Assembly: GCA_965229325.1 (NCBI GenBank)
Contig: OZ245873.1
Span: 914,716 to 978,715, forward strand
Direction: 5' to 3'
DNA length: 64,000 bases
DNA from: Kaistia sp.
GTDB lineage: Bacteria > Pseudomonadota > Alphaproteobacteria > Rhizobiales > Kaistiaceae
Shown: positions 41,852 to 57,421 of the stretch, piece by piece
Numbering within the stretch: the first letter of the stretch is position 1
Layout of the letters: each line of letters begins with the position of its first letter
The notes under the pieces: generated by a model
Database searches by the model: none
Told to the model about the DNA's origin: nothing
The model's input: only the letters and a program-made list of their open reading frames with translations
Made by a program: the position numbers and the translations under genes

Positions 41852-43207
41852 TCAGGCGCGGCGCGGCGGCCAGTTGATCTCGCGAGGTCCGTCGGGGAGC
41901 TCGCGGACCTCGCCCGGCCTGAGGCCGAGGAGATAGGACTCCGTCTCCGGAGGCAGGTCGAACGATGCAACCAATGGAGTGCGGAGGCCGATTGCCATGA
42001 CGTGATCACGCGCCATTTGGCGCAGCCTATGCGTGTCAAATCCCTCGATTTGCCTGAGCATCCGGCGGGCGACCTCTAGTGCTGCTCCGGGGGCGCGGCA
42101 CCCTAACTGCGTCTCAAGGCGACTAACCTCTGTCGCGGTCAGTGGCTGCATCCGGGCAAATGCCGTGGCAGCCGCTTGCAGAACAGGTTCCGGCGGCCTC
42201 TGGTTCGAGGCCGCCCGGATCTGGGCGACTTCGAAGCGGGGCACCTCATCGCTGTGATAGAACTGCGGGAAAGGTCGGCGCGCGATCTCCATCGTTGCGA
42301 TGCGGACGCCGTTCGATCGAATACCGTAGATTCGGCTGACGCCCGAGAAGACATCGTCCCAATAGCTGCCGACGCAGTGCGTAAGCGCACTGCCCTCCTC
42401 GAAAAGCTCCGCCCGCGTGCGCAGCGCGACGAACTCGAAGCCGTCGACATCAAGGCGTAGCGGCAGATCGCCATAGTCGGCGACGCATTGGTCTTCGGCT
42501 GCGTCCCGCCGCGCCTTTTCCGTCGCCAGCTCCTCATGCCAGCGCCGCGCCGCGGCCAAGGCCTCCTGCAGCGACCAGCGGACATCGAGCATGCCCGGCG
42601 AACGCCACAGATAGTCGGCAACCGCGTCGACATCGCGTGACACTTCTTCAGCCAGAATCCCCACACTGAAAGGCCCGCTCACGCCCCCGAGCGCTCGCAA
42701 CGCCTCATGGCCGATCGCACCGACGGCCCATTGGCGATAGTCCTCCGGCCATTGTCCGCGAGAAAAGCGAGATATCTCGCGCAAGAAATACTCCTGGTGC
42801 AGCCTGCTCCCATTCAGAACCTGCCCGAGCACAGACGGATCGCTTCGGGCGAGAATCACCAATTCTGTATGCCACTGCGGCCCTACCACTCCCGGCCGCA
42901 GCAACCGCATGGGCAACGGCAAGCCGATCGCAGCCATCACGGTCTTGAGCTTGCGGCCGTCGGCGAGGATCGACCGGAACCGGCGCTCCACGGCATTCCC
43001 CATGCCGACAAAGCTCCGCCGTTGCGTATTGTCCGGGGAGACCTGGCGCGCAAGGCCCCAGGCAATGATCGGCGCTTGCTCGAGATAGTCCGCGCCGTAA
43101 GGGTCGGCGCGCGCGATCCGATAGGCGACGCGACGAAGAAAAGCGTCGTCATACTGATTGATCGCCCTGCCGATCGCGCTCGCCATCCAATCCTTCCCGC
43201 CCGTCAT
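41852..43207 (-). CDS. PcfJ-domain protein
   Basis: FEFVALRTRAELFEEGSALTHCVGSY...IATMEI; ATGA-coupled to rep gene. Confidence 0.85.
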   Translation of the reverse strand: MTGGKDWMASAIGRAINQYDDAFLRRVAYRIARADPYGADYLEQAPIIAWGLARQVSPDNTQRRSFVGMGNAVERRFRSILADGRKLKTVMAAIGLPLPMRLLRPGVVGPQWHTELVILARSDPSVLGQVLNGSRLHQEYFLREISRFSRGQWPEDYRQWAVGAIGHEALRALGGVSGPFSVGILAEEVSRDVDAVADYLWRSPGMLDVRWSLQEALAAARRWHEELATEKARRDAAEDQCVADYGDLPLRLDVDGFEFVALRTRAELFEEGSALTHCVGSYWDDVFSGVSRIYGIRSNGVRIATMEIARRPFPQFYHSDEVPRFEVAQIRAASNQRPPEPVLQAAATAFARMQPLTATEVSRLETQLGCRAPGAALEVARRMLRQIEGFDTHRLRQMARDHVMAIGLRTPLVASFDLPPETESYLLGLRPGEVRELPDGPREINWPPRRA

Positions 43208-44286
43208 CCCCGTCCTCCCGCCGCGCGCCGCTGGCCCGCGCTGGCCAGCGCCTCGGCCACGAGCTGGGCCGGCGCCCAGCATCCGGCCTCACCCGGCGGT
43301 GGCCCCATCGCCGGCCGCCAGCGCGCCCAGTCCGGCCATGCCCGCTGGTCCGCGCCCTTTTCGCGCACCATCCGCCCGAAGATCTCGAGCGGCTTTCGCC
43401 AGTGCTCGAGGTCGGCTGTCCGCCAGTCGATCACCCTCCCCTCGCCAGCTGCCTTCTTCGCCGCGGGCGATGCCGGGCGAGTCCTTCGCTTGCGCTGGTC
43501 GAGGATCGCGCCCTCGAAATAGCGCAGCGATGTCGGCAGCTGGCCGTTCTGCCGCGCCAGCACGACGGCAACGCCGTCGCGGATCTCCGTTGCGGAGAGC
43601 CCGCCATCGAGCCACCCCCTCACCACGCCGAGATCGTCGCGATACCCGGCCGGTGCTCCGGCCCGCTCGCAGATCCACCGATGCAGGTCGACCGCCTCGT
43701 CGGTGTTCACTGCCTTCCGGGCACGATCCCTCTCCTCCCCGAAATCGACCAGAGCGGCAGCGGCAGCAGCCCCGGCCGTCTCGCTCGCCGGCGCCGGCGG
43801 TGCAGCTGCAGCTGCTGTCTGGATTCTGGCTTCTGGCTTCTGGGGGATAGGGTCCCTATCCTCCGACCTATCGGCCGCGGCAGGTTCGGCGGCCGGTGTC
43901 TCCGCCGAAGCGCCGATGGCGGGCTGATCCTTCTTCTTCCCCCAGCGCTTCGTGACCGCCTCGCGGCCGGCATCGCTCTGCCGCGCCTCCTCGAGGATCC
44001 GGCGGCTATAGATCCGCCCTTCATCGTCACGCGAGAACACCCCCGCGGTTTCGAGCTCGTCCAGGAGGCCGAGCAGCTCGTCCTCGCCGACGCCGCCGGC
44101 GACACGCATCAGCTGCGCCGTCGTCATCGGCCTTCCGTCGATCGCGAGATAGCCGGCCGGCTGCATCTCCTGCATGATGCAGACGCACCGCATCCAGAGC
44201 CCCTGCGCCGCGAGCGAGCAGAGGCCGAGCCGCGGATCCCCCAGCCAGTCCGTGCAGTAGAACTTGATCCAGACCTTGCCGCTCAT
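43204..44286 (-). CDS. Phage replication initiation protein
   Basis: WIKFYCTDWLGDPRLGLCSLAAQGLW N-terminal wHTH pattern, YSRRILEE, QKPEAR repeat-coded linker. Confidence 0.8.
   Translation of the reverse strand: MSGKVWIKFYCTDWLGDPRLGLCSLAAQGLWMRCVCIMQEMQPAGYLAIDGRPMTTAQLMRVAGGVGEDELLGLLDELETAGVFSRDDEGRIYSRRILEEARQSDAGREAVTKRWGKKKDQPAIGASAETPAAEPAAADRSEDRDPIPQKPEARIQTAAAAAPPAPASETAGAAAAAALVDFGEERDRARKAVNTDEAVDLHRWICERAGAPAGYRDDLGVVRGWLDGGLSATEIRDGVAVVLARQNGQLPTSLRYFEGAILDQRKRRTRPASPAAKKAAGEGRVIDWRTADLEHWRKPLEIFGRMVREKGADQRAWPDWARWRPAMGPPPGEAGCWAPAQLVAEALASAGQRRAAGGRG
43817..43860. repeat. Candidate origin: tandem heptamers + palindrome inside rep
   Basis: GTCTGGA/TTCTGGC/TTCTGGC/TTCTGGG (43817-43844) and GATAGGG-T-CCCTATC (43846-43860). 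Confidence 0.55.
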
Positions 44287-44554: not shown

Positions 44555-45442
44555 CTATTTGCCGAACTGCGCCTGGATCGCCGGCTTCGCGCGCGCCACC
44601 GCCGTGATGAAGGCGCCGAGCGCGCGCTCGTTCGGCACGCGGTCCGGATTCACATAGACCTTGGCGACCCACGACAGCGTCGACTTGCCGGAGAACCAGC
44701 CCTGCAGCGATTGCGGATAGGTGCCGCTCGGAATCTTGGCATAGCTGTAGAGGGCCTTGCCCTGCGGATCGACGGCGTCGTCGAAATCGCGGTCGTTGAC
44801 GCCGACCAGCGCCAGGCCGTCGCCGAACTGCTCGTCCGCCTGGCGCACCAGCGTATTGCCGATCGCCGCCGGCTGCAGCAGGCAGGTCGTCTGGTTGGCG
44901 GCGACCGACGCAAGCGCGATGACGCCGCTTTCGGTCGTCACCGGAACCTCGCCATAGTCGGCATCCTCGGCGACGAAGTTCTGCCAGATCAGCCAGGCAC
45001 CCGAGCCCTGGTCACCGAGCGCGATCGACCAGCCGTTGCCCTTCGGATCCCCCTCGAGGTCGCCGATGTCGCCGACGCCGCTCTCCTTCGAGCAGAGGGC
45101 ATGCAGATATTCGCGGTGCAGATCCGCTATCGGCTTCAGCGTCGCGGCGGCGGCCGGGTTCTGCCGCTTGAGATAGGCCGCGCCGTCGGGCTGCCCGATC
45201 ATCGCATCGCAGCCCTCGCCGAGCACGGTGCGCTGGATGTTCCCCCAGGTCCCGCCCGTGTCGGCGACGACCTCGACGCGAATGAAGGGGTCGCCCTTCG
45301 CCATGCCGGCGATCATCTGGCCGGCCTGGTTGTAAGGGCCGCCGGCGGCGCCGGTGCAGAGATGGATGACAGCCGGCTCGGCGAGCGCGGTCGAGGAAGC
45401 GGCGACGAGCAGGCCGCAGGCGAGAATGGATCGCATGGTCAT
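44555..45442 (-). CDS. TAXI-family (TRAP-type) periplasmic solute-binding protein
   Basis: Signal peptide; TGAAGGPY, TGGTWGN, LHREYLH, LGDQGSGA motifs; no transporter membrane subunit nearby. Confidence 0.75.
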   Translation of the reverse strand: MTMRSILACGLLVAASSTALAEPAVIHLCTGAAGGPYNQAGQMIAGMAKGDPFIRVEVVADTGGTWGNIQRTVLGEGCDAMIGQPDGAAYLKRQNPAAAATLKPIADLHREYLHALCSKESGVGDIGDLEGDPKGNGWSIALGDQGSGAWLIWQNFVAEDADYGEVPVTTESGVIALASVAANQTTCLLQPAAIGNTLVRQADEQFGDGLALVGVNDRDFDDAVDPQGKALYSYAKIPSGTYPQSLQGWFSGKSTLSWVAKVYVNPDRVPNERALGAFITAVARAKPAIQAQFGK

Positions 45443-45585
45443 TGGCTCCGTGAGGATGAGGAGGGGTCGGGCGTGGACCGGCGGCGGCGCCATCGCTCGA
45501 ACCTGCGGCCGGCGACGAACACGACGGCGGACCAGCAGACACCGAGCGCCAGCTGCGGCAGGTTGGCGATGACGATCGCGGCCAT
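45439..45585 (-). CDS. Small single-TM protein coupled to the TAXI gene
   Basis: MAAIVIANLPQLALGVCWSAVVFVAGRRFERWRRRR (TM + positive-inside); ATGA overlap. Confidence 0.55.
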   Translation of the reverse strand: MAAIVIANLPQLALGVCWSAVVFVAGRRFERWRRRRSTPDPSSSSRSQ

Positions 45586-45868: not shown

Positions 45869-46126
45869 TCAGCGTGTGATGTGCTTGACCGCCCACATGA
45901 CCGACTCTTCGATCTTGGTGGCGGCGAGGCTCAGCTCGCGGGATCCGAACCTGTCGCCATCCGGATCCGTGCCGCCGATCTGGTGCAGAAGCTTGATCGC
46001 GTCGAGGCCGAGATCCTTCACGCTCTTCATCGCGTCCTTTTCGGCATCCGAAAGAACGCGGTAGTTGTGGCGCATCACGTTGTTGATAACGCGCGCGTCG
46101 GACGTGCTCGATACTTCGTCTGCCAT
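45869..46126 (-). CDS. Acb2/Tad1-like helical-hairpin protein (candidate anti-defence sponge)
   Basis: 85 aa; NYRVLSDAEK resembles Acb2 GYRDLSQEE, and SRELSLAATKIEESVMWA resembles Tad1 SRENACALTHVEEALMW (recalled sequences); AAAGGAG RBS. Confidence 0.7.
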   Translation of the reverse strand: MADEVSSTSDARVINNVMRHNYRVLSDAEKDAMKSVKDLGLDAIKLLHQIGGTDPDGDRFGSRELSLAATKIEESVMWAVKHITR

Positions 46127-46196: not shown

Positions 46197-46459
46197 AACG
46201 GGATTCCATCGTCGATCTCGGCGGGGCCGGGCCGATCGCGCATGGGGGAGGCCCGGTCGACGGGATCGCCGATGAAGCGGCGCTGCACCGGCGGCATCGG
46301 CAGCAGAAAGCTCTGCCGTGCTTCGAGCACGACGAATTCCTGCCCCGGATTGGCGCGCGCGAGCCGCTCGGCCTCGCGCTCGGCGATAGCAGCGCTGGGG
46401 TGCCGCACGGATGGAGCGCCGCCACCGGTCGCGTGAATCATCCAGAATTGATCTGCCAT
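46193..46459 (-). CDS. Small phage protein
   Basis: APSVRHPSAAIAEREAERLARANPGQEFVVLEA; ends DDGIPF. Confidence 0.7.
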   Translation of the reverse strand: MADQFWMIHATGGGAPSVRHPSAAIAEREAERLARANPGQEFVVLEARQSFLLPMPPVQRRFIGDPVDRASPMRDRPGPAEIDDGIPF

Positions 46460-46527
46460 GTCGGTTGTCCGGTCGGTTGGAGGGACGGCGGATGGTCAGC
46501 GCGTCGGCGCGTCTCTGGGCACGGAAG

Positions 46528-46579
46528 CGCACGAAATCGTGCGAATGTGCTTGCACACCGCACGAAGTCGTGCGATAGT
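46528..46579 (+). promoter_or_regulatory. hicAB sigma70 promoter with two palindromic operators
   Basis: TTGCAC(46551)-17 bp-GATAGT(46574); CGCACGA-NN-TCGTGCG at 46528-46543 and 46559-46574. Confidence 0.8.
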
Positions 46580-46604
46580 CCTTGCATTGAAACGGAGACG
46601 GGAG

Positions 46605-46799
46605 ATGACGCGAGACCAGCTCATTCAGGAGCTTCGGAAGCTGGCCCGGAAAGAGGGCAAGGACTTCGAAGTCTTCACGAACAAGGGCAAGGGGTCTCAC
46701 TACCGGGTGCGGTTCGGCGGCGCGATGACGACAGTCAAGGGCGGCGAAATGACCCCGGGTTATGTGAGGCTCATCAAGAAGCAGCTGGGGATCAACTGA
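46605..46799 (+). CDS. hicA: HicA-family toxin
   Basis: 64 aa, GKGSH motif, GGAG RBS. Confidence 0.88.
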   Translation: MTRDQLIQELRKLARKEGKDFEVFTNKGKGSHYRVRFGGAMTTVKGGEMTPGYVRLIKKQLGIN

Positions 46800-46862
46800 T
46801 CCCCAGCCCTTCCTCGCAAGGTCTCTCCCGTCGATGCGTTGGAGCCCAAGGAGGGGCAGAGC

Positions 46863-47297
46863 ATGGACTATATCTATCAGGCCCGGTTCGAGCCGGATCC
46901 GGACGGCGGCTTTCTCGTGACGTTCCCCGACGTCCCGGAGGCGATCACCCATGGCGCGACGATGGACGAAGCCAGGGCGAGCGCCGCCGAGGCGCTCGGC
47001 CTCGCGCTGCGCGGCATCGTCCAGGCCGGCGGCGCCGTCCCGCCGGCGCGCGCCTATCGCGGCGGCCGCGACACGGCGATCGCGGTCCCGGCCGACGACG
47101 CGCTGAAGCTCGCCGTCATCGAGGCCTTCCGTGCTGCAGGAATCACGAAGTCCGAACTCGCCCGCCGGCTCGGCAAGGGCGAGAACGAGGCGCGCCGGAT
47201 CCTCGACCCGGACTATCCCTCGAAGCTCGAGATGCTGTCGGCCGCGCTGGCCGCGCTCGGCCGCACGGTCGTGATCTCCGTCCGGGAGGCGGCATAG
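46863..47297 (+). CDS. hicB: HicB-family antitoxin
   Basis: GGFLVTFPDVPEAITHG.T.DEA; C-terminal HTH KSELARRLG...RRILDP. Confidence 0.92.
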   Translation: MDYIYQARFEPDPDGGFLVTFPDVPEAITHGATMDEARASAAEALGLALRGIVQAGGAVPPARAYRGGRDTAIAVPADDALKLAVIEAFRAAGITKSELARRLGKGENEARRILDPDYPSKLEMLSAALAALGRTVVISVREAA

Positions 47298-47300
47298 ATC

Positions 47301-48089
47301 TTGAGCGAACCCGCGAGGACTATATCGATCAAGACGTTCCGCCTCTGGGTCGCAGTGGTGGCTCTGATGCTTGCCCTTGTAGTGGCCGGATGGAAGTGGC
47401 CGACTTTCATCGAGCAAATCGATCGCTGGCAGACCCTGATAACAGGCATCCTCGCGCTCATTGTCGGGTTTCTGACGATCACGCGCATCGACCACCAGAT
47501 AGCAGAGACCCGCCTTGAGCAGGAACGCAGCCGGCGCGCAATGATCGCGGGCCAGAATCAGCCCGCGATTGAAAGGATCAATCTGATCGGTCTGGCTGTC
47601 GCCAGCTTTCGCGACCGGCTCAGATCGGTGGGCGACAATGCAACGTGGAAGCTCCGGGATACCGTGACCGAGGAGCTGCACCTTAATCGACAACGATACT
47701 TCGACCTCGAAGAGGTAGAGGCCTACTATCTGGCTCGATTTCGGGTGTTGGCACTTGCCGACCGATTCTTCAGCGACAGCGACCAAGAAACGACGCCGAA
47801 GGCCAAGCGGCACCTGGACGCGATCGAGGAGACCGCCATCCTCACGAGCCTGCTGCGCGACATGGCCCTGCTGCTCGGCGAGGGCTACACCCTGCGAGAG
47901 CTGAGCAAGCTCACGAGCCGTCAGATTGCCGAAGCTGCTCATGATATCCGACCGCCGCGTGAAAACTGGCTTCTTGCTTTGCGCCCTTCTCCGGGCGGAC
48001 CCTCTGCCGGCGCCTCCCAACCCCAGACCTCCCAGCCCGGCCGGGCCCGGCGGGCGTTGAGCTCGATCTTCGGCAGCGTCGGGAAATAG
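47301..48089 (+). CDS. Two-TM moron protein of unknown function
   Basis: Two N-terminal TM helices, WQTLITGILAL pattern; AT-richer; overlaps the MT-A70 3' end. Confidence 0.6.
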   Translation: MSEPARTISIKTFRLWVAVVALMLALVVAGWKWPTFIEQIDRWQTLITGILALIVGFLTITRIDHQIAETRLEQERSRRAMIAGQNQPAIERINLIGLAVASFRDRLRSVGDNATWKLRDTVTEELHLNRQRYFDLEEVEAYYLARFRVLALADRFFSDSDQETTPKAKRHLDAIEETAILTSLLRDMALLLGEGYTLRELSKLTSRQIAEAAHDIRPPRENWLLALRPSPGGPSAGASQPQTSQPGRARRALSSIFGSVGK

Positions 48090-49354
48090 GCCTCGATCAG
48101 CTCGGCGAAGATCTCGGGCTTCTCGGAGTGGCGGCCGACCGGCGCTTCGATGACGGACGGCCATTGGGTGCCCTGCGCCGGCGCCGGCGGCTCTCCGCGG
48201 GTCCCGTAGAGCAGGATCTCGTGCTTGTTGCGGTTGATGTGGCCGGTGCCGAGACGGTCCTTCAGCCAGATGAACTGCGTCTTGTAGGTAAAGCCCCAGC
48301 CCTTCATGACGTAGAGGGCGGACAGAAGCATCGGCGCCGTCGCCCAGAGGAACAGCGCGCAGTCCTTGGCCGCGATGTCGCCGACCGGGCGGAGCACGAT
48401 GTCGTTGAGGGGCGAGGTCGGATAGTGGTTGTCGGCCGAGCGGTCCATGCCCGTCTCGTCGCTCCACGTCTCAAACTGCCATTCCGGGTCGGCATAGATG
48501 ACGCCATAGCGCTTGTCGGGGAGCGCGCGCTGACGCTTGCCGAGTTCGCGCTCGCGCACCTCCCGCCGTTCCTTCTTGGCGTGCTGGTCCGCTGCGCGAA
48601 GGTCCTTCACGACCGATCGGAATGCCGAGACCGTGTCGCTGCTGCCGGCGATTGCCGCGATCACCGCCTTCTGTTCTTCCTTCGGCAGCGCCGCGACGGT
48701 TGCGGCCGCGGCGATCGATACGGTGCCTGCGCGCACCTGGTCGACCAGCTCGCGGCCGCCATGATCGCGCACCAGCTTCGCGCGCTCGACGGTGCGCTCC
48801 GGAACGCCGAGCGCCCTCGCCGCCTCCGCCGTCGACAGTGCGGACCCGGACGAGCTTATTCCGCCAATTGGCGGATTTTCCGGGGACTGCTCGCGCGGCC
48901 GGCCGCGGCCGCGGGTCGCGAGATCCGCCGCGATCAGCGCGCGCTGCGCATCGGTCAGATGGCGCCGATGCAGGTTCCGCGAGATCACGGTTGCAAGCGC
49001 ATCGACGCCGGGCACGCCGGCCACTGTGAAATCGTTCGGCAGATGCGCCAGCGCCTGCGGCAGCCGGCTCATTTCCTCGTCGGTCACCGCCCGGCCGGCC
49101 AGCGCCGCCCGAAGCGCCAGGAGGGGCGCTTCGATCGCAAGGCCGAGGATCGCATAGGCGGGCTCGATCCCAATCACCTGCAGGGCGCGGTACCGGTTGC
49201 GCCCGTCGAGGATACGGCCCTGGTGCAGGATGATCGGCTCCTGCTGGCCGTTGTCGCGGAGGTCCTCGATTAGCCCGACAAGCGCTTCGCCCGTCATCAG
49301 CGGAAAGATGTTCGCGAGGTCGTGGAAGGCCGCGCCTTCCGCCAGCATGGTCAT
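47939..49354 (-). CDS. ParB-N / MT-A70 fusion adenine methyltransferase
   Basis: N-terminal G..EPI..ILDGRNRYRA, SRNLHRRHL; C-terminal YGVIYADPEW, DCALFLW, HSEKP, IELNAR. Confidence 0.88.
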   Translation of the reverse strand: MTMLAEGAAFHDLANIFPLMTGEALVGLIEDLRDNGQQEPIILHQGRILDGRNRYRALQVIGIEPAYAILGLAIEAPLLALRAALAGRAVTDEEMSRLPQALAHLPNDFTVAGVPGVDALATVISRNLHRRHLTDAQRALIAADLATRGRGRPREQSPENPPIGGISSSGSALSTAEAARALGVPERTVERAKLVRDHGGRELVDQVRAGTVSIAAAATVAALPKEEQKAVIAAIAGSSDTVSAFRSVVKDLRAADQHAKKERREVRERELGKRQRALPDKRYGVIYADPEWQFETWSDETGMDRSADNHYPTSPLNDIVLRPVGDIAAKDCALFLWATAPMLLSALYVMKGWGFTYKTQFIWLKDRLGTGHINRNKHEILLYGTRGEPPAPAQGTQWPSVIEAPVGRHSEKPEIFAELIEAYFPTLPKIELNARRARPGWEVWGWEAPAEGPPGEGRKARSQFSRGGRIS

Positions 49355-49659
49355 GGCCGCGGCGCTCCCTCGCGGCCGGCGATGGCCCGGACGCGCGCCA
49401 GCGAGGCGTCGCGCTGCTCGAGCTCGCCGCATGCGCTATCGAGGCGATCGAAGATGCCGAGATAGTGCTCGCCATAGTTCAGCACGGCGAAGGCAGCGAG
49501 CGCCCGGCCATGCTGCAGCTCGGCAAGGCCGATCGGCCCTGCCCGCCGGCCGCGCCGCGCGCCGCGGATCGGACGTCGCGTCTCCTCGTCCGCGTCAATG
49601 GGCGAGCCATCGCGCTGTCCCTGCGGCGTAGGCAACTCTGCGGAGCGGCGCGCCTGCAT
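49351..49659 (-). CDS. Hypothetical protein
   Basis: Coupled between DUF2312 and MT-A70. Confidence 0.5.
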   Translation of the reverse strand: MQARRSAELPTPQGQRDGSPIDADEETRRPIRGARRGRRAGPIGLAELQHGRALAAFAVLNYGEHYLGIFDRLDSACGELEQRDASLARVRAIAGREGAPRP

Positions 49660-55293: not shown

Positions 55294-55671
55294 ATGGGCA
55301 ACGGAAAAGTTCCACAGCCGGTCGACGTCATCGTCGGCAGCAGGGTGCGCCAGCAGCGCATGAAACTGGGCATGAGCCAGGAGAAGCTCGGCGAGGCGCT
55401 CGGCATCTCGTTTCAGCAGATCCAGAAATACGAGAAGGGCACCAACCGCATCGGCGCGAGCAGGCTGTCCCAGATCGCCGCGGCGCTCGGTATCGCCCCG
55501 GCGGCACTCTTTCCCGACACGGACGCGCCGGCGGCCGTCGAGATGCCGGTGTTCGACGCGTTGACGATCCGCGTCGCCAACAACTTCGCCCGGATCGGGA
55601 ACCAGCAGCTGCGTCGTTCGCTCGCCGGCGCGATCGCCGCGGCGGCGCATGTCGCCGAGGAGGCCGCCTGA
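55294..55671 (+). CDS. XRE-family HTH regulator
   Basis: VDVIVGSRVRQQRMKLGMSQEKLGEALGISFQQIQKYEKGTNRIGASRL. Confidence 0.92.
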   Translation: MGNGKVPQPVDVIVGSRVRQQRMKLGMSQEKLGEALGISFQQIQKYEKGTNRIGASRLSQIAAALGIAPAALFPDTDAPAAVEMPVFDALTIRVANNFARIGNQQLRRSLAGAIAAAAHVAEEAA

Positions 55672-55672
55672 G

Positions 55673-57421
55673 ATGGCCTCGCTCGTCCTTGCCCTTTCCG
55701 CCCTGCGCTTCGGCCATGAAGCCGAGCCGCCGATCAATGTTCGCCAGGTCGGCCGCGACAGCGACATCCCGGCCCTCGCCGGCTCGATCCTCGCGCATGG
55801 CCTGATCCAGCATCTTGAGGTGCAGGAGCGAGACGGCATCTACTTCGTCGCCGACGGCAATCGCCGGCTGGCGGCGCTGCAGTTGCTGCAGCGGCAGGAT
55901 GCCATTCCCGCCGATCACCCCGTCCAGTGCGACGAGGTCGACCCAGCCGCGGATCCGGTCGAGATCTCGCTTGCCTCGAACGTCATGCGGACGGCGCTTC
56001 ATCCGGCCGACGAATATGTCGCCTTCAGCGATCTCGCTGCTCACGGGCTCAGCGAGGCCGGGATCGCGTCGCGCTTCGGCATCGAACTTCCGCGCGTCCG
56101 CCGCATGCTTGCCCTCGGTCGGCTGGCGCCCGGCGTCATCGAAGCCTGGCGATCGGGAGCCTTCGAGCATCGGGGGCTGGAGGACGTCGCCGCGTTCTCG
56201 CTCGCTCCGTCGATCGAGGAGCAGGAACGCGTTCTCGCCCTCCTGCTGCGCACGCGCAATCTCTACGCCCACACCATTCGCCAAGCGCTGGGCGCCAGCG
56301 ACGCCGCGGCTCTCTCCAACCTCAAGCTCGTCGGGAAGGAAGCCTATCTCGCCGCCGGCGGGACGATGATCGAGGACCTCTTCGGCGACCATCACGTCAT
56401 CGGCGACACCGCGCTTCTCCAGGAGCTTGCCGCCGATACGGTCAAGGCTGAACTCGAGCGGCTGCGCGCCGACGGCTGGAGCTGGGCCGAACCTGAATGG
56501 GAACTGCCGAACGGCGCCCGCTACAGCTGGGCGACCGCGCCGTCCGGGACGGTGAGCGGGAGGAAGGCCGAGAAGGCGCGGCGCGACGAACTGCAGGAGA
56601 AAACCAACGCGCGCGGCGCCACCGAGGAAGAGCGCTCCGAGCTTGCGGCGCTGAAGAGCGAGCTTGAGCTGGCGGCCTTTTCGAAGGCGGCAAAGGCGAC
56701 GTCCGGCGTCATCATCTCCCTGCAGAGCGGCCGGCTCGTCCTCACCCCCGGCAAGCAGAAGCCGAGCGGCAAGGTCCGCGCTGCGAAGGCCGACACGGGC
56801 GACGGCGACGAGGCAGCCGCCGAACCGTCGATCTCGAACGCTTTGCACGAACGGCTGTCGATCCAGCTCACCCTCGCCGTTCGCAAGGCCCTCGAGAACG
56901 AACCGACCGTCGGAATCTCGGCGCTTCTGGCCGGCTTCCTTTGCTCCGAGCATGCATCGCCCATCCGGGTACGGCTGAACGGCCATGGCACCGAGGTCTA
57001 TCAAGACCGGGAAGCCTATGAGGCCGCCTTTGCTCGCGTGCTCGCCATGTCGGACGGAGATCGTCTGGCGCTCGCGGCCGGACTCGCGGGCCAGGCCGTC
57101 GACATGGTGCGGACGATCACGGTCCAGAAGCCGCTGGCCGACCCTGGCATTGCCCTCCTGACCGCGCGCATGGATGGCTTCGGCCTCGAGGGGGCCATCG
57201 CTGCCGCGTTCGATGCCGAGGACTATTTCAAGAGCGTCTCGCGGCCGGTCCTTCTCCGTGCCCTCGCCGAGGCGGGGCTTGCCGGCGAAGGCGATCGCAA
57301 GGCCGCGAAGATGCCGAAACCCGAACTGGTGGCCTTCGCAGAGGCGAACCTGCCCCAGCGGGGCTGGCTGCCGCCGGAGCTCCGGACCGTCCACTACGCC
57401 GGACCCGGGAGGCAGGCATGA
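55673..57421 (+). CDS. Large ParB/RepB/Spo0J-family protein
   Basis: LAGSILAHGLIQ.L.V, VADGNRRLAAL, SNVMRTALHPADE, HTH, LALGRLAP. Confidence 0.85.
   Translation: MASLVLALSALRFGHEAEPPINVRQVGRDSDIPALAGSILAHGLIQHLEVQERDGIYFVADGNRRLAALQLLQRQDAIPADHPVQCDEVDPAADPVEISLASNVMRTALHPADEYVAFSDLAAHGLSEAGIASRFGIELPRVRRMLALGRLAPGVIEAWRSGAFEHRGLEDVAAFSLAPSIEEQERVLALLLRTRNLYAHTIRQALGASDAAALSNLKLVGKEAYLAAGGTMIEDLFGDHHVIGDTALLQELAADTVKAELERLRADGWSWAEPEWELPNGARYSWATAPSGTVSGRKAEKARRDELQEKTNARGATEEERSELAALKSELELAAFSKAAKATSGVIISLQSGRLVLTPGKQKPSGKVRAAKADTGDGDEAAAEPSISNALHERLSIQLTLAVRKALENEPTVGISALLAGFLCSEHASPIRVRLNGHGTEVYQDREAYEAAFARVLAMSDGDRLALAAGLAGQAVDMVRTITVQKPLADPGIALLTARMDGFGLEGAIAAAFDAEDYFKSVSRPVLLRALAEAGLAGEGDRKAAKMPKPELVAFAEANLPQRGWLPPELRTVHYAGPGRQA

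Follow-up and report, generated by a model that had tools for sequence, protein, structure and literature searches.

TAXI proteins are textbook transporter subunits. The closest described systems, VcGluP-VcGluQM of Vibrio cholerae (8S4J/9IBO) and TtGluBP of Thermus thermophilus (1US4/8U79), represent TAXI-TRAP transport, with an exported solute-binding protein (SBP) and a fused DctQM permease. Cyanophage PstS is a phage-encoded SBP for phosphate uptake that works with host PstCAB, a partner that is known and present in every host. Periplasmic SBPs can also report ligand occupancy to a membrane protein that is not a transporter, as in LuxP-LuxQ, TorT-TorS and ChvE-VirA. Here we analysed a gene pair in a 64,000-nucleotide stretch of the genome of Kaistia sp. 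(contig OZ245873.1, positions 914,716 to 978,715 of the forward strand; hereafter the window), where a prophage encodes an SBP with a predicted TAXI fold and export signal together with a 48-amino-acid (aa) membrane microprotein.

The window SBP shares with the TAXI-TRAP proteins its fold, the family PF16868, export and the ligand-binding residues. Unlike in those systems, the fused DctQM permease is missing from the window locus, from the host genome and from the genus genomes searched, the SBP stays under the TIGR02122 cut-off, and both the disulfide positions and the distal pocket differ. Moreover, the phage SBP nearly always comes with a membrane microprotein of 35-70 aa, whereas the canonical systems have none. 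As with cyanophage PstS, we are dealing with a phage-borne orphan periplasmic binding protein and no phage permease gene, but this host lacks permeases of the cognate class, and the phage supplies a dedicated microprotein along with the SBP. The signalling from SBP to membrane protein known from LuxP-LuxQ, TorT-TorS and ChvE-VirA is what we propose for this module; those systems, however, use large sensor kinases with defined outputs and not a peptide of 35-48 aa with a single transmembrane (TM) span and a 7-residue cytoplasmic motif. Rather than having been borrowed for uptake, the pair probably forms a phage envelope device that has so far gone unstudied. Our favoured reading, to which we assign a rough probability of 45%, is a phage-specific, transporter-independent two-gene receptor module in which occupancy of the SBP would be passed to the microprotein. 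Its features are as follows.

45439-45585, minus strand: unannotated gene of the 48-aa single-pass membrane microprotein ('type A'), based on the open reading frame (ORF), its conservation and its ratio of non-synonymous to synonymous substitution (dN/dS)
45508-45579, minus strand: hydrophobic TM core, spanning about residues 3-26 of the microprotein and containing the motif ANLPQLALG (Kyte-Doolittle; alignments A3 and A5)
45490-45510, minus strand: juxtamembrane GRRFERW motif at residues 26-32, on the cytoplasmic side by prediction (alignment A5)
45434-45449, minus strand: junction of the peptide and SBP genes with GGAG, ATGA overlap and second ATG (direct sequence reading)
44555-45436, minus strand: gene of the putatively exported TAXI-fold SBP, 293 aa from the ATG at 45436 (alternative start 45442), PHROG 6856 (PF16868, PHROG, AlphaFold2 (AF2), Foldseek)
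45380-45436, minus strand: Sec-type signal peptide MRSILACGLLVAASSTALA with predicted cleavage between ALA and EP (inspection; low pLDDT in this segment; homologues with equivalent AXA sites)

At the gene junction, the TGA of the microprotein (45441-45439) overlaps an ATG (45442-45440), giving an ATGA overlap at 45442-45439. This confirms, on the minus strand, the ATGA coupling to a 48-aa single-TM ORF that an earlier note had read from the letters of the stretch. A GGAG at 45449-45446 lies 3 nucleotides (nt) from this first SBP ATG (45442) and 9 nt from the second (45436-45434), the latter being the start used by the gene caller and the database (P0003, 293 aa). Because of the spacing of 9 nt, we favour the second ATG as SBP start. 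Whichever start is used, the arrangement indicates that the two predicted genes are translationally coupled. The microprotein is preceded by a 69-aa gene whose stop codon lies 4 nt before the microprotein ATG, and the whole cassette belongs to a co-directional string of eight genes spaced by -4 to 79 nt. Within the string, neither a sigma-70-like promoter nor an intrinsic terminator was predicted, which is weak evidence given that the scan covered sigma-70 consensus sites only. We read the gene string as an early operon.

The microprotein, MAAIVIANLPQLALGVCWSAVVFVAGRRFERWRRRRSTPDPSSSSRSQ, has a single hydrophobic span, peaking at 1.86 on the Kyte-Doolittle scale over 17 residues, and behind it a tail that is strongly basic. 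It carries the type A motif I-A-x-x-N-N-L-P-x-L-x-L-G...W...F..G-R-R-F-E-R-W, the consensus over alignments A3 and A5 being M-x-I-A-V-x-N-N-L-P-x-L-I-L-G-x-C-W-x-x-V-V-F-x-x-G-R-R-F-E-R-W. Residues G26, R28, R31 and W32 are invariant in alignment A5 and the C-terminal tail beyond the motif is variable. By the positive-inside rule, the peptide would span the membrane with its N-terminus out and its C-terminus in. Its sequence is conserved at more than 20 loci. Close type A pairs differ by 7-10 synonymous versus 2-3 non-synonymous changes (dN/dS 0.04-0.10) and one further close pair by 1 versus 0 (dN/dS 0); over all pairs, where synonymous sites are saturated, the median is 0.46. Judged from these alignments, the microprotein gene is under purifying selection. 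Gene callers missed the ORF, and only 2 proteins among 5.8 billion resemble its product. Since it is conserved, shows low dN/dS and was found again by a search that started from the peptide (see below), we regard it as a real gene and not a chance ORF. Neither type A peptides nor the type B peptides described below significantly matched any family in Pfam, PHROGs, NCBIfam or PADLOC.

These data bear on the possibility that the pair is decaying or neutral cargo, that is, a recently captured host TAXI gene beside a chance ORF. High-G+C DNA does yield many spurious ORFs, and two SBP copies from IMG/VR (L028 and L039) look truncated or frameshifted. Against cargo, the host genome holds no SBP paralogue, the G+C content of the SBP gene matches its surroundings, and the SBP is intact, with pocket residues and cysteines invariant across 40 or more homologues. 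In addition, the family is phage-wide (PHROG 6856) and the small ORF is conserved at low dN/dS. We therefore hold cargo to be extremely improbable. A recent host capture in decay, which the earlier note had named as one of two findings that would undo its interpretation, is effectively refuted by the lack of a paralogue, the matching G+C content, the phage-wide family, the pairing along the SBP tree and the low dN/dS of the peptide. In the two IMG/VR copies, the SBP frame is interrupted or truncated (L028 6001-6829, L039 5203-6007) and the type A peptide of L028 is intact; the breaks may reflect occasional decay or assembly error.

The SBP matched Pfam PF16868 (NMT1_3) with 37.4 bits, above the cut-off of 27, and NCBIfam TIGR02122 (TRAP_TAXI) with 51.3 bits, under the cut-off of 84.35. 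It is a divergent member of the TAXI family. Over its full length it matched PHROG 6856 (E=1.1e-55), which is listed as 'unknown function'. An AF2 model, made from an alignment of 40 homologues with the phage-record rows left out, reached a pLDDT of 91.8. Its seven best Foldseek matches were all solved TAXI proteins (E 1.8e-16 to 7.8e-14, TM-score 0.66-0.72), led by VcGluP (9ibo, TM-score 0.72) and followed by TtGluBP and others, with 9ibo, 8u79, 1us4 and 8s4j at E 1e-15 to 1e-16. The model thus points to a two-lobed type II periplasmic binding protein whose nearest solved structures are TAXI proteins. By inspection, the SBP has an n-h-c signal peptide and four invariant cysteines; the latter would fit two periplasmic disulfides, C27/C76 and C115/C185, if paired according to the strand layout of the model. 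The secreted TAXI-type protein of the earlier note is therefore upheld by the PF16868 match, the signal peptide and the modelled fold, and the structure prediction it had proposed as a check returned a periplasmic binding protein.

To map the pocket, we used a profile alignment to 8s4j whose numbering was checked against the two VcGluP disulfides in PMC11574862. Residues Y45, S75, Q93, E125 and G156 of VcGluP correspond to Y35, T63, Q82, E109 and G144-S145-G146 of the window SBP. These positions are invariant or nearly so among 40-43 homologues and, by eye, are also kept in phage homologues of 24-31% identity (EBPR siphovirus 2, Bradyrhizobium BDU-MI-1, Pseudomonas Lana, Erwinia Caitlin and a Vibrio phage). 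Their counterparts in VcGluP and TtGluBP hold the amino and alpha-carboxylate groups of glutamate (PMC11574862 for VcGluP). Since the conserved residues are those that grip the glutamate head group, the probable ligand is a molecule with a head group of the amino-acid type, either an amino acid itself or some small acid akin to it. Taken together, sequence and model describe an intact, putatively exported and ligand-binding-competent TAXI-fold protein.

The SBP family is represented in isolated phages, in IMG/VR (38 loci) and in genomes (12 loci, mostly Rhizobiales). To see how the pair is distributed, we compared 55 SBP loci and scanned 450 nt on either side of the SBP for partners on the same strand. 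A mini membrane protein was the sole neighbour travelling with the SBP. In the window, the Kaistia loci and L004, this partner is a type A peptide with one TM span upstream of the SBP. In the sister clade, the type A peptide follows the SBP by 3-80 nt, and these 'downstream type A' loci form a single clade with a support of 100/100. Gene order thus flips between the type A sister clades and adjacency is retained. The type B partner, found in other clades such as those of Atu_ph08, PBC5 and RHph_I1_18, is a hairpin of 50-70 aa with two TM spans, a start overlapping the SBP stop codon and a conserved Gln...Asp turn (alignment A4). Partner type tracks the clades of the SBP tree, with 5 changes among four labels versus 24 expected by chance. 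Among more distant phages, Bradyrhizobium phage BDU-MI-1 and EBPR siphovirus 2 encode type-A-like peptides of 37-39 aa upstream of the SBP, and Pseudomonas phage Lana encodes a hairpin downstream of it. The isolated phages with the pairing are Atu_ph08, PBC5, RHph_I1_18, BDU-MI-1, EBPR siphovirus 2, Lana and Erwinia Caitlin. A few low-G+C loci have a third hairpin type or no clear partner. The pairing of SBP and small TM peptide, whose co-occurrence the earlier note had put forward as a check, recurs across phages.

Nothing else was shared to this degree. All-against-all clustering of the ORFs within 4 kb at the 55 loci yielded no ORF family common to more than 15 of them besides the SBP and its antisense shadow ORFs. 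Most of the PBC5/Atu_ph08-like phages, which are syntenic with one another, encode an XRE regulator immediately before the SBP. The cassette was also found in large phages that encode tRNAs or nucleotide metabolism, without signs of lysogeny genes nearby. Together with the co-directional gene string, in which no promoter or terminator was predicted, this occurrence suits a role in the lytic cycle. At two loci (L052 5861-7046 and L025 5765-7006) we observed a three-gene cassette with an upstream peptide of 38-60 aa and a downstream hairpin; the C-terminal TM helix of the upstream peptide reads W-[IV]-P-V-A-x-A-F-G-I-T.

The wider family is large. Among 1.84 billion representatives, the SBP profile matched 1,407 proteins with E<=1e-3, of which 162 reached E<=1e-30. 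Of the 150 best relatives, about 25 are long fusions of 430-616 aa with the TAXI subtype as C-terminal half (for example P0172, P0188, P0197, P0222 and P0235). Their N-termini combine a hydrophobic segment, a Ser/Lys-rich low-complexity stretch, a conserved Y-G-x-x-D-x-x-F-L...Y-H-H-x-x-D-P-G motif and a coiled coil. No Pfam domain was found in these N-terminal regions, Pfam recognizing the TAXI part only. Such natural fusions suggest that the TAXI subtype can function while tethered to a membrane-associated scaffold. A likeness of the Asp-containing hydrophobic segment of the fusions to the hairpin motif was considered and dropped, the inferred orientation being opposite. One homologue of 362 aa (P0064) has an annotated N-terminus that adds an in-frame two-helix hydrophobic hairpin before the SBP signal peptide, which is either a true hairpin-SBP fusion or an over-extended start.

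In a second approach, we searched from the peptide side, using a type A profile from alignment A5 in IMG/VR and in a metagenome scan. The IMG/VR search returned 13 loci, 11 of which were SBP loci already found. The remaining two (L073 and L075) have no SBP within 2.5 kb; here the peptide is directly followed by a protein of 148-150 aa with a TerB domain (PF05099, 55-61 bits). Five further loci came from the metagenome search; the SBP accompanies the peptide at four of them and TerB at the fifth. In total, the peptide stands with the SBP at 15 of 18 loci and directly upstream of TerB, with no SBP, at three:

L073, 2501-3115: peptide and TerB genes, no TAXI gene
L075, 2501-3116: peptide and TerB genes, no TAXI gene
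L080, 355-942: peptide and TerB genes, no TAXI gene

There was no TAXI gene anywhere in the two TerB-type phage records, which are 100% and 97% complete (CheckV). The peptides of these two records keep the NNLP-E-L motif and a GRRFERW-like motif, and the juxtamembrane motif is retained in the TerB-linked copies of L073, L075 and L080. In L075, a gene with a Cro/C1-type helix-turn-helix lies just upstream. In Erwinia jumbo phage Caitlin, the genes for TerB (gp5), a hairpin of 59 aa (gp6) and TAXI follow one another, the hairpin bearing the annotation 'TciB-like inhibition of cell division or resistance to colicin'. The window prophage, unlike these Ter-type modules, has no TerB gene, and the three TerB-domain genes of the host lie elsewhere. 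Because the SBP is found at 15/18 and TerB at 3/18 peptide loci, the microprotein is the constant element. The exported TAXI protein and the cytoplasmic TerB may therefore be alternative or joint partners across the membrane.

Auxiliary uptake is the first alternative. The SBP might hand an amino or organic acid to a host carrier (DctQM or another secondary carrier), with the microprotein as an adaptor that fits this carrier to the task and boosts nutrient import in the course of infection. Such a role would have parallels in small membrane proteins that modulate transporters (AcrZ, MgtS and KdpF) and in cyanophage PstS, and it would agree with the conserved ligand-binding residues and with the presence of one DctQ and DctM in the host. 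However, there is no TRAP membrane gene in the window, as previously stated, and in the complete host genome (one contig, 4,996,853 bases) no TAXI-type fused permease was found with TIGR02123 (best match 45.8 bits, cut-off 320.65). This best match is an ordinary DctM at 3.82 Mb, the sole DctM in the genome, which is adjoined by DctQ and has its own DctP 0.5 kb away; to our knowledge, TAXI and DctP proteins do not exchange partners. None of the five genus genomes (the host and four others) passed the TIGR02123 cut-off, compared to 13 of the 41 genomes of the family. The phage-type SBP is present in only 2 of these 41, both among the five genus genomes, and almost never adjoins a permease among the 55 loci. 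In other phages the same peptide pairs with cytoplasmic TerB and no SBP, an ill fit for an adaptor. With no TAXI permease in the genome, hijacking of a host TAXI/TRAP transporter, as the earlier note had suggested, is unsupported in this host, and we consider auxiliary uptake in general unlikely.

Superinfection exclusion or envelope protection would give the pair a different task, the blocking of DNA entry by other phages or of membrane attackers such as pore-forming colicins. T4 Imm/Sp and HK97 gp15 are early exclusion proteins of the inner membrane and periplasm, and the same logic of placement would hold here: both products are envelope-located by prediction, the operon-like string is read as early, and temperate phages as well as virulent-looking ones carry the module. 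The gene set of which TerB is part has historically been tied to phage inhibition and colicin resistance, in agreement with the TciB-like annotation of the Caitlin hairpin. Yet the residues of a small-molecule pocket are strictly conserved down to 24% identity, which would be needless for pure protein blocking. Family searches revealed no similarity to known exclusion proteins; unlike the SBP, T4 Imm/Sp and HK97 gp15 are not ligand-binding proteins of this kind, and no likeness to them in sequence or fold was found. PADLOC models matched neither the SBP nor the peptide nor four neighbours, and there is no sign of a separately expressed moron. Exclusion as the primary function is in our view improbable, to about the same extent as uptake.

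The genomic setting bears on a third alternative. The window contains a complete myovirus-type prophage, with large terminase, portal, head-protease fusion, sheath, tape measure, baseplate hub and tail protein genes, so that the cassette is indeed phage-encoded, as had been assumed; Mu Gam, GapR, MT-A70 and PcfJ genes are found in the flanking region. Two genes upstream of the cassette, 45869-46126 (minus strand) encodes an 85-aa protein with an Acb2/Tad1 hairpin (PF24729, 63 bits), likely an anti-CBASS/Thoeris signal sponge. The sponge half of the position originally assigned to the cassette, between a sponge and a replication initiator, therefore stood, and the initiator half did not gain support: the 360-aa protein just downstream of the cassette (43204-44286, minus strand) matched no family.

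With a cytoplasmic sponge-type gene nearby and a pocket resembling a high-affinity binding site, the SBP might itself be a periplasmic sponge for a small extracellular or periplasmic signal, the small ORF being incidental. The periplasm, however, exchanges freely with the medium, which would make stoichiometric sequestration ineffective, and the small ORF is co-inherited and under selection. The Acb2/Tad1 adjacency is not conserved, with no clustering of such a gene among the SBP neighbours in at least 4 of the 55 loci; the position among anti-defence genes, once thought suggestive, is thus a local feature. Moreover, known immune signals are cytoplasmic, so a sponge for them ill fits a Sec-exported protein with disulfide cysteines. 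The Acb2/Tad1 sponges differ further in that the SBP matches no sponge family. We regard a sponge as very unlikely.

Several other neighbours were noted. Just downstream of the cassette, 41852-43282 (minus strand) encodes a PcfJ-like protein of 476 aa (PF14284). On the opposite strand, a HicA/HicB-like pair is inserted in the early region: 46458-46799 (plus strand) looks by eye like a HicA-like toxin with a KGSHYRV motif, and 46839-47297 (plus strand) like a HicB-like antitoxin, with PF15919/PF15970 recorded for the identical locus L046; a 262-aa gene follows at 47301-48089. The gene at 47939-49432 (minus strand) encodes a 497-aa fusion of a ParB-like N-terminal domain and an MT-A70-type DNA methyltransferase (phrog_21315, phrog_359), a frequent type of phage anti-restriction gene, and a second ParB-like protein is encoded at 55649-57421 (plus strand).

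In the receptor module that we favour, SBP and peptide would be made together from the early-operon-like string of the prophage. The microprotein would insert into the inner membrane as a single helix, with its short N-terminus and the NNLP-type motif facing the periplasm and the GRRFERW tail facing the cytoplasm. The SBP would be exported by Sec, form two disulfides and keep a working Venus-flytrap pocket. Once bound to its ligand, it would act at the membrane via the microprotein, itself possibly oligomeric. The microprotein would then be the constant working part and the SBP its periplasmic input, which TerB may replace in some related phages. As candidate outputs we see a shift in the permeability or potential of the membrane, the control of some membrane protein of the host, and the timing of lysis or exclusion. 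Contact, topology, ligand class, early expression and output are what we infer from genes and models. As for lysis, the cassette belongs to the string read as early, the CHAP-domain gene is about 6 kb off on the other strand and the peptides match no holin family; the cassette is not a lysis cassette, and the peptide may still have holin-like activity.

A bolder version takes the microprotein of 35-48 aa as the core of a minimal phage transmembrane switch with exchangeable sensor heads. The heads would be a periplasmic TAXI flytrap in the window, cytoplasmic TerB in L073, L075 and L080, and both in Erwinia jumbo phages. In the window, the phage would read a periplasmic amino acid, such as glutamate set free by lysed neighbours, and convert SBP occupancy into the state of a peptide oligomer. 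A change in oligomer state might mean an ion leak or depolarisation, or release of the GRRFERW tail, tuning lysis timing, exclusion or the course of infection. We consider this version unlikely.

Several points weigh against the receptor module. L019, L031, L058 and the L014 group have no clear adjacent membrane ORF. Homology of the one-TM and two-TM partners is undemonstrated, hhalign pairing type A with the second TM helix of type B at a probability of 3.8%. A contact between SBP and peptide is putative, suggested by gene pairing, and because the peptide exposes almost nothing to the periplasm, docking would have to take place at the membrane surface. Finally, the distal pocket differs, with Q188 and P189 in place of Y200 and M201 of VcGluP, and Y45 is found in 78% of TAXIs (PMC11574862). 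Part of the pocket conservation is thus a general trait of TAXI proteins, which makes our assignment of a ligand class tentative.

We found no paper on phage TAXI proteins or on an SBP-microprotein cassette in the literature. New here are the one-TM 'NNLP' partner type and its order flip between sister clades, the pairing of type A peptides with TerB in SBP-free phages, and the absence of a TAXI permease from a complete host genome and the genus genomes searched. The phage-borne TAXI subfamily thus stands without a TRAP permease and with a microprotein that pipelines miss. Phage genes annotated 'TRAP transporter solute receptor' or 'C4-dicarboxylate ABC transporter substrate-binding protein' should be checked for a host partner before they are called auxiliary metabolic genes. 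Were the switch version true, the virus would encode, in two pieces, an analogue of a ligand-gated membrane receptor. Should the pair prove to be a membrane device that responds to a ligand, it would represent a new viral route to sense or manipulate the cell envelope. A function could then be assigned to genes found in many phages (temperate, T4-like and jumbo) whose hosts include plant-associated bacteria, and functional microproteins would gain a new class.

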